Assembly (NCBI GenBank): GCA_030533265.1
Contig: JAUNJM010000003.1
Coordinates: 11,692 to 75,691, forward strand
DNA from: Ruminococcus sp.
Lineage (GTDB): Bacteria > Bacillota > Clostridia > Oscillospirales > Ruminococcaceae
Direction of reading: 5' to 3'
DNA length: 64,000 nt
Shown: positions 41,297 to 44,988 of the stretch, one piece after another
Numbering within the stretch: position 1 is the stretch's first letter
Layout of the letters: the number at the start of each line of letters is the position of its first letter
Program-made: the position numbers and the translations under genes
Notes under the pieces: model-generated
Told to the model about the DNA's origin: nothing
Databases searched by the model: none
Seen by the model: only the letters and a program-made list of their open reading frames with translations

Positions 41297-42160
41297 ATGT
41301 TAGTATCTGCAAAGGAAATGCTTACAAAGGCAATCGAAGGAAAGTATGCTGTAGGTCAGTTCAACATTAACAATCTTGAATGGACAAAGGCTATTCTTCA
41401 GACAGCTGAAGAACTCAAGTCACCTGTAATTCTTGGTGTATCTGAGGGTGCAGGAAAATACATGTGCGGATATAAGACTATTGTTGGAATGGTGAACGGT
41501 ATGATCGAGGAGCTCGGAATTACAGTTCCTGTAGCACTTCACCTTGATCACGGTACATTTGAAGGTGCAAAGGCTTGTATCAACGCAGGTTTCTCATCAA
41601 TCATGTTCGATGGTTCACACTACCCAATCGAAGAAAACATCGCAAAGACAACAGCTCTCGTAAATACTTGTGACGTTCTCGGAATTTCACTTGAGGCTGA
41701 AGTTGGTTCAATCGGTGGAGAAGAAGACGGTGTTATCGGTGCCGGTGAATGTGCTGATCCTGACGAGTGCAAGGCTATTGCTGACCTCGGTGTAACAATG
41801 CTTGCTGCAGGTATCGGAAATATTCACGGTAAATATCCTGAAAACTGGGCTGGTCTTTCATTCGATACACTTGCTGCAGTTAAGGACAAGGTTGGAGATA
41901 TGCCACTCGTACTTCACGGTGGTACAGGAATCCCTGCTGACATGATCAAGAAGGCAATTTCACTCGGAGTTGCAAAGATCAACGTAAATACAGAGTGCCA
42001 GCTTGCATTCGCTGCTGAAACAAGAAAGTATATCGAAGAAGGTAAGGACCTTCAGGGCAAGGGCTTTGACCCAAGAAAGATACTTGCTCCGGGTGTTGAG
42101 GCAATCAAGGCAACAGTTAAGGAAAAGATGGAACTCTTCGGTTCAATCGGCAAGGCTTAA
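41297..42160 (+). CDS. fba: Class II fructose-bisphosphate aldolase
   Basis: HLDHG, DGSH, GNIHG, VLHGGTG, KINVNT. Confidence 0.96.
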   Translation: MLVSAKEMLTKAIEGKYAVGQFNINNLEWTKAILQTAEELKSPVILGVSEGAGKYMCGYKTIVGMVNGMIEELGITVPVALHLDHGTFEGAKACINAGFSSIMFDGSHYPIEENIAKTTALVNTCDVLGISLEAEVGSIGGEEDGVIGAGECADPDECKAIADLGVTMLAAGIGNIHGKYPENWAGLSFDTLAAVKDKVGDMPLVLHGGTGIPADMIKKAISLGVAKINVNTECQLAFAAETRKYIEEGKDLQGKGFDPRKILAPGVEAIKATVKEKMELFGSIGKA

Positions 42161-42213
42161 TAAAAGTAATATAAAGGGGAGCAGATTGCTCCCCTGATAT
42201 ATAAAATTGAATA

Positions 42214-42257
42214 CGAGTGTATCCCAGATCAACCACTCGCTAATAAAAACAAGGAGG
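42214..42257 (+). ncRNA. Probable preQ1 class I riboswitch (translational)
   Basis: CGAGTG/CACTCG stem, loop ending AAC, A-rich tail TAATAAAAACAAGG overlapping the SD of queT. Confidence 0.65.
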
Positions 42258-42266
42258 ATTCTCTAA

Positions 42267-42779
42267 ATGAGAATTTTTAACGCACGCAGAATCACAAAAA
42301 TTTCGACTGTTACAGCGATTTATGTAGTCACAACATTGCTTTGCAGTGGAATAGCATACGGACAGATGCAGTTTCGGGTATCAGAAATGCTGATGTTACT
42401 TTGCTTTTTCAATAAGGACTATATCATTTCAATGACGCTGGGTTGCTTTATCGCAAATCTGTTCAGTCCTTTAGGCCTTATTGATGCAGGATTTGGAACA
42501 GCAGCAACACTTATTGCAGCGATACTGATATATGTGTTCCGCAAGGAAAACAACACGGGACGATTGATAGTATGTTCACTTTTCCCCGTTATTACGAATG
42601 CATTAATAGTATCCGCAGAGCTTAAGGTTGTATTCGACTTGCCATACTGGGCAAACGCCGTATGGGTAGGAGCAGGCGAATTTGTGTGTGTAAGCATTCT
42701 CGGAACAGCAGTTTTCAGACTTTTGTTAATGAACAAAGGATTTGTGAAAATGGTTTCGGCAAAGAGTGCGGTTAATTAA
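42267..42779 (+). CDS. queT: Queuosine precursor transporter QueT
   Basis: YGQMQFRVSE, GCFIANLFSP.G..D..FGT, GEF. Confidence 0.9.
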   Translation: MRIFNARRITKISTVTAIYVVTTLLCSGIAYGQMQFRVSEMLMLLCFFNKDYIISMTLGCFIANLFSPLGLIDAGFGTAATLIAAILIYVFRKENNTGRLIVCSLFPVITNALIVSAELKVVFDLPYWANAVWVGAGEFVCVSILGTAVFRLLLMNKGFVKMVSAKSAVN

Positions 42780-42820
42780 AAAAATGACCGACAATTACAT
42801 AGTGATTGTCGGTTGAATAT

Positions 42821-42906
42821 GCAGAAGTGGCGGAATGGCAGACGCGCTGGCTTCAGGTGCCAGTGGCAGCAATGTCGTGTGGGTTCAAGTCCCATCTTCT
42901 GCACCA
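42821..42906 (+). tRNA. tRNA-Leu(CAG)
   Basis: GCAGAAGTGGCGGAATGGCAGACGC...TTCAGGT...long variable arm...GGTTCAAGTCC...CCA. Confidence 0.97.
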
Positions 42907-42949
42907 AAAAAGAAGTAACTTTTGGTAGACAAAAGTTACTTCTTTTTTT
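42907..42949 (+). terminator. Long hairpin terminator after tRNA-Leu
   Basis: AAAAGAAGTAACTTTTG/CAAAAGTTACTTCTTTT. Confidence 0.85.
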
Positions 42950-43094
42950 ATCCAAGCCGCAGGCTTGGCATATCATCACGCGTCAGCGTGTATATCATCG
43001 CCGTAGGCGCATATCATCAGCCGAAGGCTGTATTACCTGCAGCTTGATGAGATGCAACACTGCGTGTTGATGATATACAAGGCTTCGCCTTGAT
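42950..43094. repeat. Two-fold symmetric array of six variable hairpins joined by a constant YATATCAT linker
   Basis: Four top-strand hairpins (loops GCA, GTCA, GTA, GAA) and two bottom-strand hairpins (GCA, GAA); three linkers on top and two on the bottom strand. Confidence 0.9.
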
Positions 43095-43139
43095 TTGTTT
43101 GTGGAAAAGTAGTATAATTCTCTTGAAAGGAGTGGTTAT

Positions 43140-43488
43140 ATGCCGAAAAATTATTTGCTGATATATTCTGAGCAGCTTGCAACTGAAATTGAATTGCTTT
43201 GTCAAAGCATTAAGGCCCCGTCTAACACTCTTTTCCAAATTCGTAAAAAGTTCAAGCAGTATTTATGCAAATATCCGTGAAGCAAATTATGGACAGAGTA
43301 AAGCGGATATGCTTTCAAAATTTGAAATTGCTCTTAAGGAATGTAGCGAAACCGAAGGTTGGTTACGTTTATTGTTCAATACGAATGCGATTGATGAAGA
43401 AATCTATAAAAAGCATAGAAATCTTTGCGGTCGAATCAGACGAATGTTGATTGCAAGTTGTAAAACATTAAAGGAGAGTATAAAATGA
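43140..43488 (+). pseudogene. Four-helix-bundle protein (23S rRNA IVP / Avd-like family) with +1 frameshift in the A5 run at 43245-43249
   Basis: AGGAG RBS, MPKNYLL...QIRK|SSSSIYANIREANYGQSKADMLSKFEIALKECSETEGWLRLL; matches the family pattern Q..RS..SI.ANI.E....S..DF..K..IA.KE..ET..WL. Confidence 0.85.
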
Positions 43489-43856
43489 AACGAATTATTT
43501 GTTTTTTGATTTGCTTGTTGATGCTATTTTCATTCGTAGGTTGTGATTCCGATACAACCCCTGTTCTTTCCGGCAGTTATTATGCTGTTGGCGATTATGA
43601 AGAAATGTTAACGCCGTATCTGTCGCTTGATACAGATAACAATGAGTTTCGTTTTGGTGCCGGTTCTGCACTTTCTTATCAGGAATATGGCTCTTATAAA
43701 ATTGCAGACGGAAAGATTATTGCCACTTCACAAAGCACAACATTTGAATTTGAGATTAAGGATAAGAACACCCTTATATTGATTGACAATGGGGATAATG
43801 ACTTTTTTAAAATTCCTATCAATACGCAGTTTGTATATAGTGAAGATTTGAAGTAA
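43485..43856 (+). CDS. Hypothetical lipoprotein (cargo of the tRNA-Leu module)
   Basis: MKRIICFLICLLMLFSFVGC lipobox; AAGGAG RBS; overlaps the upstream stop. Confidence 0.75.
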   Translation: MKRIICFLICLLMLFSFVGCDSDTTPVLSGSYYAVGDYEEMLTPYLSLDTDNNEFRFGAGSALSYQEYGSYKIADGKIIATSQSTTFEFEIKDKNTLILIDNGDNDFFKIPINTQFVYSEDLK

Positions 43857-43914
43857 TTACATTATTTTTAGTCGTTCTTACCCCTGCTTACACTACTTTT
43901 AGTCGCTCTCTCGC

Positions 43915-43955
43915 AAAAAAAGTAGGAAGTACCAAAGGTGCTTCCTACTTTTTTT
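43915..43955. terminator. Bidirectional terminator closing the module
   Basis: A7-GTAGGAAGTACC/GGTGCTTCCTAC-T7. Confidence 0.85.
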
Positions 43956-44052
43956 ATGTAATAAAAATCCCTAAAATCTACGTTCTTAAAATTAATTTAT
44001 TGTAAAACTATAACGTAACCTCGTTCGGCTATCCTATCTTCTGTTGTTTTTT

Positions 44053-44988
44053 CTATACTTTAAAAACCATTCTCAAAAAGTTATACAGATGTGGTTTTAC
44101 ACTGCTTGCATCGTGACCACCGTCTGATACCGTGTGCCAGAGATGCGTTACACCATTATCATTCAGCAAGTTGTGATAGGACTCCGGTGCTGTCGTGACA
44201 ACAGGATCATTGACTGCTGCAGAAACAAGCAAAAGATATGGTGCTTTTTTAGTGAAGGTCAGCTCCGACTTTTCAAGCTGTCCCGGATGCATTGGGGAAT
44301 TCGGTATTTCAACCAGTCCCGGAGCCGGACAAACAGCTCCTATGTAACCGAAAAGCTCAGGGAGAGAAGCTCCGATAAAAAGTGATTCACGTCCACCCAT
44401 AGAAAATCCTGTTATAGCAGTGTTTTCCCTGCCTGTTTTTACAGAAAAGGTCTTTTCAATAAACGGCATAAGATCTGTTGTAAGATCGTTTATGAAATTG
44501 TCATATGCAAGTGAATTTTCAAGGTCCATACCGGTGCAAGAAGGCATATCCTTGCTACAGAACATGTATGGTGCTACTACTATCATCTCTTCAGCCTGAC
44601 CGTCAGCGTAAAGATTTGAAATCATTTTGTCAAGACTTAAATCAAAGCCTTTTGCCCAATCCTCATTACCAAAGTATCCGTGCAAAAGATAAAGAACAGG
44701 ATATTTTTTATCCTCAGAATAGTTCGGAGGCAAAAGGACGTTAACATTGGTATCACGACCTGCAGTTTTGGAAAAGTAGGTGTATTTTCTGAACTCAGGG
44801 TAATCAATACCATCTCTTTTGACAATGATGTCCTCTGGTTGCTTTTCAGTGATTTTTTCCTTAACAGATTGCATATACTCCACTCCTGTAATTTTTTCGC
44901 CAGCTGAACTGTCTTTTGAACTATTGCTGTTACACGAAGCAGTTGACAAGGTCAGTATTGCAACAAGTAAGCATAGTATTTTTTTCAT
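44053..44988 (-). CDS. CE1-like esterase lipoprotein (feruloyl/acetyl esterase type)
   Basis: Lipobox TASC, YPVLYLLHG, GFSMGG, GGH. Confidence 0.82.
   Translation of the reverse strand: MKKILCLLVAILTLSTASCNSNSSKDSSAGEKITGVEYMQSVKEKITEKQPEDIIVKRDGIDYPEFRKYTYFSKTAGRDTNVNVLLPPNYSEDKKYPVLYLLHGYFGNEDWAKGFDLSLDKMISNLYADGQAEEMIVVAPYMFCSKDMPSCTGMDLENSLAYDNFINDLTTDLMPFIEKTFSVKTGRENTAITGFSMGGRESLFIGASLPELFGYIGAVCPAPGLVEIPNSPMHPGQLEKSELTFTKKAPYLLLVSAAVNDPVVTTAPESYHNLLNDNGVTHLWHTVSDGGHDASSVKPHLYNFLRMVFKV

Follow-up and report, generated by a model that had tools for sequence, protein, structure and literature searches.

A tRNA-docked hairpin-array gene cassette of gut and rumen Clostridia and its associated PF05635-family gene

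What is the unit of about 1 kb that lies directly behind a tRNA-Leu(CAG) gene of Ruminococcus sp., and how might it have arrived there? The DNA in question is a stretch of 64,000 nucleotides (assembly GCA_030533265.1, contig JAUNJM010000003.1, positions 11,692 to 75,691 of the forward strand), which is called the window below and to which all coordinates refer. The initial annotation of this stretch had described, in order behind the tRNA gene, a terminator, an array of short hairpins, a promoter, a gene for a four-helix-bundle (4HB) protein, an overlapping lipoprotein gene and a closing terminator, and had regarded them as a candidate novel module. All of these parts are indeed present (Table 1), between queT on one side and a convergent esterase gene on the other. 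The module is not peculiar to the window, however; it belongs to a large family, and among the flavours of that family one has already been catalogued as the Gut-1 RNA motif. We lean, with moderate confidence, towards reading 42907-43914 as one copy of a family of small gene cassettes of gut and rumen Oscillospirales-type Clostridia, docked behind the CCA of a tRNA or transfer-messenger RNA (tmRNA) gene or behind a previous cassette, in which the 4HB protein and the array would work together.

The family, that of tRNA-docked hairpin-array cassettes, was defined in this analysis and is apparently unpublished. A pattern scan of one genome per species returned at least 120 array loci, nearly all of them from metagenome-assembled genomes (MAGs) of gut or rumen Clostridia (Acutalibacteraceae, Oscillospiraceae, Ruminococcus, 'Eubacteriales' and Christensenellaceae). 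The array in the window has the features by which the family is recognised: after the CCA come an A-run, a hairpin, a T-run, ATCC and a first hairpin (hairpin0), followed by two opposed arms that use the same word and by an outward promoter. The array of the window and 36 others begin immediately behind a CCA, which belongs to tmRNA or to one of at least 15 different tRNAs, and in these 37 CCA-docked copies the layout is constant (A-run, variable stem-loop, T-run, ATCC, hairpin0, first linker). In the signature scan a tRNA or tmRNA called by ARAGORN adjoins 47 of 92 copies, a lower bound, as the tRNA table behind this count is without loci L014-L033; several of the remaining copies lie after a tRNA 3' end and others after the conserved end of a preceding cassette. 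Tandem array-gene-array-gene series are also present behind tRNA genes. Furthermore, the subtype of the terminator co-varies with that of the array, and since the two travel together the terminator belongs to the cassette; the hairpin of the proximal terminator is near-identical after other tRNAs in other families. The terminator in front of the array is intact, with no sign that the element lies inside a terminator loop. The loop of this hairpin is flipped in the window (GGTAGAC; 42925-42930) relative to loci L154, L026 and others (GTCTACC), the stems being identical, and both forms are found in public contigs.

Alignment of the window with L154 and L026 places the left boundary of the cassette at the A-run right after the C of the tRNA-Leu(CAG) CCA. 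The right boundary is given by L154, a metagenome contig that carries the whole cassette at 92% identity behind the end of another cassette, with no tRNA. The homology to L154 begins at the A-run after the C and ends at ..CTCTYTCGC(A), which is window position 43914, and the second terminator is not in common. Because the homology stops there, the alignments put the cassette at about 1,008 bp (42907-43914), and the closing terminator, counted as part of the module by the initial annotation, is probably either a resident one that also serves the convergent esterase gene or the start of a following unit. A motif resembling the cassette end motif also stands in front of the cassette in L154; set against tRNA 3' ends by eye, the end motif showed no convincing resemblance to them.

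It is clear that the cassette has spread horizontally. In a DNA search of 40 relatives, the segment 42902-43488, comprising the terminator, array, promoter and 4HB gene, turned up at 80-81% identity in two further families of the order, where it lies behind tRNA-Glu, whereas the flanking queT and esterase genes reach only 67-70% identity within the genus. Comparison of the locus in relatives, as the initial annotation had proposed, revealed the cassette in other contexts and also empty sites; in two genomes of the same genus the tRNA-Leu(CAG) gene is followed by a plain terminator. The distribution is patchy: in an even sample of the order (151 genomes, 94 genera), arrays with the linker word of the window, ATATCATC, were found in 17 genomes belonging to 16 genera, with up to about 10 copies per genome, and in 0 of 9 other genomes of the window's own family. 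The source MAG itself (1.41 Mb, 83% complete) holds a single copy of the array and, likewise, a single PF05635 gene. Its native tRNA genes all encode CCA and several stand directly before an A-run terminator, which fits insertion at the C|A junction in front of such terminators. In a congener (L011; G001:C3) the last 18 nt of tRNA-Leu(CAG), GTCCCATCTTCTGCACCA, are repeated about 100 nt downstream, much as if an integrase-type event, either insertion or excision, had left a scar at this tRNA.

Table 1. Features of the cassette and its borders in the window
Feature	Coordinates	Strand	Basis
tRNA-Leu(CAG), encoded CCA, docking point	42821..42906	+	ARAGORN; Rfam tRNA 54.6 bits
Proximal bidirectional terminator: A-run, 19-bp stem, 5-nt loop, T-run	42906..42948	+	19-nt inverted repeat, 100% complementary; fold
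Two-fold symmetric hairpin array, 148 bp	42951..43098	no strand	repeats, folding
Hairpin0, 5' half plus loop	42955..42964	+	complementary to array centre 43037-43046, one mismatch here
Array centre, reverse complement of hairpin0 start; first inverted linker comes next	43037..43046	+	
Outward sigma-70-type promoter: -35 TTGATT (array end), 17 nt, -10 TATAAT	43090..43118	+	10/12 matches
4HB gene, PF05635/TIGR02436, split by one extra A	43140..43487	+	HMM, intact-orthologue alignment
123-aa lipoprotein-like cargo ORF, signal peptide, ..FVGC lipobox-like site	43485..43856	+	ORF list
Cassette end motif: TTTTAGTCGYTCT twice, final ..CTCTCTCGC	43862..43914	+	homology with copy in other context ends here
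Second A-run/hairpin/T-run terminator	43915..43955	no strand	fold -16.4 kcal/mol, z -8.4
HMM, hidden Markov model; ORF, open reading frame.

The left arm of the array consists of hairpin0 and then three units, each made of a linker YATATCATC and a short GC hairpin; the right arm, after the centre, repeats this grammar on the opposite strand and has the terminus ..CCTTGAT. Folding z-scores were -7.7 for the whole leader as RNA and -5.0 for the array as DNA. The relation between hairpin0 and the centre is a property of the family: the 10 nt after ATC in hairpin0 have their reverse complement at the array centre, with at most one mismatch, in 69 of 73 arrays and in 11 sequence variants, as compared to 3.4 mismatches for shuffled probes. 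The hairpin stems vary across arrays with the pairing kept. The loops are strongly biased; read in the orientation of the linker they are G..A in 156 of 252 cases and T..C in 1 of 252, and half of them are triloops, mainly GAA, GCA and GTA. C-GNA-G triloops form very stable DNA mini-hairpins. In the left arm it is the top strand that bears the word and the G..A loops, in the right arm the bottom strand. No such loop bias would be seen in a duplex site and one transcript would serve only one arm, and for these reasons we favour, as an inference, a single-stranded DNA form as the one in which the array acts. Downstream, the array end ..TTGAT is followed by a TATAAT-like box at 16-17 nt in 25 of 63 arrays, and 17 of these 25 also have an extended TG.

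Neither large A/T-flanked hairpin was flagged by a simple terminator scan, and both rest on inverted-repeat and folding evidence. Low-scoring Rfam matches to microRNA, snoRNA and plastid entries in the leader were disregarded as plain hairpins, and there was no rRNA match in 42000-44500. The piece 42935-42981 (hairpin0 and first linker) stands out in gut metagenomes, where its contig depth is 10-100x that of the remaining cassette and where it continues into many different sequences; it must therefore be extremely abundant across organisms.

Arrays of the same architecture occur with other words (TGAAAT, GTGAAGT, ATGTAAT, GTGATAT, GCGATAT, GTGATGC and AATGAAG), and it is through one of these that the family meets a known motif. 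The TGAAAT array of L031, between tRNA-Leu(GAG) and a 4HB gene, matches Rfam Gut-1 (RF01706) at 64.4 and 51.4 bits on two strands, both above threshold, so that Gut-1 is present there as an inverted pair. Gut-1 consists of three short hairpins with a constant short word between them, which is the grammar of the window array. The window array itself reaches 27.2 bits (minus strand, 42987-43062; E 0.0016 in a 251-nt search), which is below the 50-bit gathering threshold; its word is AUAUCAUC/UGAUGAUAU and not the UGAAAU of Gut-1, while the hairpin-and-word architecture is alike. In the paper that described it (Weinberg et al. 2010, PMC2864571), Gut-1 is a motif of human-gut sequences that was treated as a non-coding RNA; tRNA genes, inverted pairs and the 4HB gene are not mentioned. 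A full-text literature search returned no account of a tRNA-docked array/4HB cassette beyond the Gut-1 motif, so the cassette family is apparently unpublished.

The initial annotation had proposed that array and 4HB protein are a cognate pair, and the physical linkage of the two is non-random when approached from either side. A 4HB gene is the first ORF, at a fixed distance, after 16 of 67 arrays with a downstream ORF, and no other protein family occurs more than 3 times in this place. Relatives of the 4HB protein were also fetched by protein from metagenome and viral contigs, giving 57 unique proteins with at least 300 nt upstream; 47 of the 57 have a two-fold word array upstream, by a crude test which the window itself fails, and 42 of the 57 have a same-strand tRNA or tmRNA within 450 nt upstream. 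In five genomes, 13 of 13 PF05635 genes lie behind tRNA genes or at contig ends. Furthermore, the word follows the 4HB clade, with 20 changes counted on a quick tree as compared to 37.8 for shuffled labels. PF05635 is present in 17 of 17 array-bearing genomes and in 56 of 134 others (Fisher p 1.5e-6), a p-value that overstates the case, as the genomes are related and not independent.

AT-rich word arrays without hairpins also occur with 4HB genes. A separate 4HB clade behind tRNA genes (L015 and L020 in G036; L248 in G113; L255 in G120) has such hairpin-free AT-rich words, first direct and then inverted, and at L015 the terminator-plus-word block is present three times in tandem. Eight 4HB relatives on contigs of the IMG/VR viral collection (L234-L241) are all in tRNA-type contexts, several of them with an upstream tRNA and a word array. 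Some genomes of the order sample (G107, G106, G058 and G065) carry 7-10 PF05635 genes, several with in-frame stops, and so 4HB genes must both multiply and decay within genomes.

The 4HB gene of the window is not intact in the assembly, being broken into two partial ORFs at an A5 run (43245-49). When one A of the run is skipped, a protein of 115 amino acids results. Three relatives, one of them a 92%-identical copy, have A4 at this position, and in contigs of three public runs one A is missing at 43245; apart from this, one of the contigs is identical to the window over 43154-43272. On the strength of these relatives and contigs the extra A is probably an assembly error or a private or strain variant, and not a feature of the gene.

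Read through the extra A, the frame scores 69.2 bits against PF05635 (cut-off 33.8) and 75.3 bits against TIGR02436 (cut-off 24), and the family membership proposed by the initial annotation is confirmed. A profile of seven orthologues matches the Protein Data Bank (PDB) entries 2RLD (E 6e-37) and 2GSC, each of which was deposited with five chains. The predicted model of a 94%-identical orthologue has four helices with a mean confidence (pLDDT) of 94.6, and superimposes on the solved structures with a template-modelling (TM) score of 0.85 to 2RLD and 0.81 to 2GSC. The relation to Avd that had been suggested is also seen in the model, which gives a TM score of 0.79 to Avd (4DWL) with a root-mean-square deviation of 2.3 Å and 16% identity; similarity to Avd in sequence was not detectable by a profile search with the 4HB orthologues. 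The protein is a PF05635 four-helix bundle, with an Avd-like fold according to the model, and is probably pentameric. Avd is the pentameric accessory protein of diversity-generating retroelements that binds nucleic acid and reverse transcriptase (RT) (in part from PMC6182149). The fold is what the orthologue model has in common with Avd (PDB 4DWL; retroelement ribonucleoprotein 8UBB and related entries); in contrast to those retroelements, the window 4HB gene has no RT, template or variable repeat beside it, its neighbours being queT, the tRNA, the lipoprotein ORF and the esterase. It is of the same family as the intervening-sequence (IVS) proteins of 23S rRNA genes, also called 'S23 ribosomal protein' (PF05635; 2RLD, 2GSC), and like theirs its gene is attached to a gene for a stable RNA. 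Unlike those, it does not lie within a 23S rRNA helix but behind a tRNA with its own promoter, with a hairpin array before it and cargo after it.

The conserved block shared with copies from other families ends at the 4HB stop codon, beyond which the content of the cassette varies. In the window the start of the cargo ORF overlaps the 4HB stop (ATGA), and the ORF has no Pfam or NCBIfam match. The same overlap, with the next ORF starting 4 nt before the end of the stop, is found at 15 of 55 loci, the window included, and its frequency suggests translational coupling. As the initial annotation anticipated, the cargo is variable; highly diverse ORFs follow 4HB genes, and at least 11 of the proteins are lipoprotein-like. 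Homologues of the window cargo are found directly after an array without a 4HB gene (L080) and after a 4HB gene of another clade (L193). Contigs from RNA libraries, one in each of two studies, span the 4HB/cargo junction, and one of them starts at 43072, at the edge of the array; these contigs may derive from DNA carry-over and give neither strand nor ends, and are not taken as proof of transcription.

These results suggest the following working of the cassette. The cassette's own bidirectional terminator would insulate it from transcription of the tRNA. The two-armed array of mini-hairpins, with one short word as spacer, would fold as single-stranded DNA, and the outward promoter, whose -35 box lies in the last hairpin, would drive first the 4HB gene, in the complete form of the cassette, and then the variable cargo. 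The adjacent 4HB protein would bind the array, perhaps as an oligomer sitting on the iterated hairpins, and together with host enzymes would help to copy the cassette or insert it at the C|A junction before an A-run terminator, possibly also mobilising copies in trans. Where an array has no 4HB gene, the copy would have decayed or be non-autonomous, while still acting as a boundary element made of terminator and promoter. The strongest form of this proposal is that the array and the Avd-like 4HB protein together make a new kind of mobile cassette free of a recombinase, in which the protein binds strand-specific DNA mini-hairpins with G..A loops and host replication, repair or RNA-end chemistry places the cassette exactly at the CCA of any tRNA or tmRNA gene; this we put forward only tentatively, as a possibility that is rather doubtful at present.

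Several observations weigh against the joint working of array and 4HB protein or against movement. About three quarters of the arrays have no adjoining 4HB gene, and the agreement between word and 4HB clade could result from physical linkage and nothing more. Among nearly complete genomes, G113 and G050 carry orphan ATATCATC arrays while their sole 4HB gene has another word, and G066, G105 and G164 carry orphan ATATCATC arrays while all their sampled 4HB genes have other words. These orphan arrays, in genomes with mismatched 4HB words, mean that strict word-specific action in trans is not supported, and as a mode of recognition it was rejected for these five genomes. The orphan arrays may be decayed copies, or the 4HB protein may read the hairpins instead of the word. 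The protein is a helical bundle of 115 amino acids without known enzymatic activity, and no catalytic partner of the cassette was identified. The stems are short (4-6 bp), and a clear promoter at fixed spacing is present in only the 25 of 63 arrays mentioned above. Judged as a miniature inverted-repeat transposable element, the array has arms that are inverted copies of one grammar, while no target-site duplication was seen at the junctions compared. The RNA-library contigs, which include the array edge along with the genes, allow a role as RNA, and the data come nearly all from MAGs and metagenome contigs. G028 obeys a rule of one word to one 4HB gene except for one composite array. Composite arrays, in which an array with the word TATGTAATC is directly followed by one with GTGATAT, occur at two loci of L023 (G028:C5), in a genome with one 4HB gene.

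Alternatively, the cassette may be no mobile unit but a resident regulatory or boundary element, either an insulator that the host uses at its tRNA loci or a structured RNA (a small RNA of the Gut-1 type, or a tRNA 3'-trailer), with the 4HB protein as a DNA- or RNA-binding regulator or a chaperone that controls its own expression by way of the array ahead of its promoter. The array does have a terminator before it and a promoter after it, and the -35 box of this promoter comes from the last hairpin; some arrays are followed by housekeeping genes, purF and rsmA among them; Gut-1 is listed in Rfam as an RNA with covariation; the RNA-library contigs extend to the array edge at 43072; and native tRNA terminators of the source genome often abut the CCA in a similar way. 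However, a resident element would not be expected to have so patchy a distribution, nor a nucleotide identity between families above that of the flanking genes, nor to be found in different contexts with empty sites in congeners. A single transcript is no explanation for Gut-1 matches on both strands of one locus, or for G..A loops that lie on opposite strands in the two arms, and the position of the array behind a strong terminator and ahead of the promoter also tells against an RNA. A resident element is therefore unlikely, though of the alternatives it is the one that survives best.

If the cassette does move, an enzyme might be expected to accompany it. In agreement with the initial annotation, no integrase or transposase was found within or beside the window cassette. 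Other contigs of the source MAG encode a single RT and a single full tyrosine recombinase; the sole RT gene (G000:C50:80580-81203, a 395-aa frame) lies about 0.9 kb from tRNA-Thr(CGT). The array-rich genomes G036 and G065 yielded no RT, and with the RT of the source MAG on another contig RT was rejected as the partner. The initial annotation had also suggested that an RT, a HUH enzyme or a REP-associated tyrosine transposase (RAYT) might co-occur with the array, and no consistent one was found. The Y1_Tnp domain is present in about 8 of 17 array-bearing genomes and in 40 of 134 others, and no instance was found in G065 (18 arm matches), G028, G050, G066 and G069, all of which are array-rich and 95-100% complete; none of the Y1 genes inspected had an array alongside. 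The HUH/Y1 enzymes were rejected as the partner on these grounds, co-occurrence being inconsistent. The source MAG has an IS200-like match at the start of a contig (a 142-aa frame), and RAYT-like ORFs of about 250 aa are present in the array-rich genomes G036, G105 and G164. At L243 (G105:C67) two inverted RAYT-like genes (about 250 aa) flank a tRNA cluster that includes a 4HB cassette, one on each side at a distance of some 5-6 kb.

These results bear on a second alternative, in which the array is a selfish repeat comparable to the repetitive extragenic palindromic (REP) sequences and bacterial interspersed mosaic elements (BIMEs), its hairpins moved in trans by a RAYT-like HUH (Y1) transposase, and the 4HB gene is a frequent passenger behind the outward promoter. 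In enterobacteria and pseudomonads, where the RAYT is also known as TnpA_REP, REPs and BIMEs are extragenic mosaics of short hairpins in alternating orientation, present in many copies at the ends of transcription units. The arrays described here, whose hairpins alternate in orientation and are flanked by conserved words, resemble BIMEs, G..A-loop hairpins on a defined strand would suit an enzyme acting on single-stranded DNA, and RAYT-like ORFs are found in three array-rich genomes. But the inconsistent occurrence of Y1_Tnp, its absence from the findings in several nearly complete array-rich genomes and the lack of arrays beside the Y1 genes inspected all argue against such an enzyme. The stems of the arrays are also variable with constant linkers between them, whereas REP stems are conserved, and exact docking at a tRNA CCA, a terminator and promoter, and gene cassettes are not properties of REPs. 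This alternative is improbable.

The least probable explanation, an integron-like platform in which one strand of the array folds into a recombination site (comparable to attC or to the attP of CTX phage) for a distant host Xer-type tyrosine recombinase and the 4HB protein is an accessory or merely a common cassette gene, can draw on the tandem series of arrays and genes behind tRNA genes, on small, diverse, accessory-type cargo that includes lipoproteins, on an array whose structure is kept while its sequence varies, as in attC sites where the folded single strand is the relevant form, and on the tyrosine recombinase of the source genome, which essentially all bacteria have, but it has to contend with the facts that no integrase or other recombinase ORF adjoins any array inspected (no search with an intI-specific or attC model was made), that the site lies at the head of a cassette with its own promoter and terminator, unlike most integron cassettes, and docks at tRNA 3' ends, that no attC-type core sites were recognised, no formal test having been made, and that a ubiquitous Xer enzyme is beyond the reach of a co-occurrence test.

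The reading of 42907-43914 as one copy of a docked cassette family, with a 4HB protein that would act on the array beside it, joins two orphans: the Gut-1 motif, reported in 2010, and the stand-alone PF05635 'IVS protein' or Avd-like bundles, whose structures date from 2006-07. The two meet in one sharply bounded unit whose address is the last base of tRNA and tmRNA genes. If the cassette is driven by its 4HB protein and is free of a recombinase, this would be the first function for stand-alone PF05635 proteins, those of the 23S IVS included, and for Gut-1. If the cassette moves without a recombinase of its own, genes would have a new way to spread among abundant Clostridia of gut and rumen, and strains might in part owe to it their differences in surface lipoproteins and other accessory genes. 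Even if it is immobile, the cassette is a compact and portable boundary element of terminator, array and promoter, of interest for gene regulation and as a tool.

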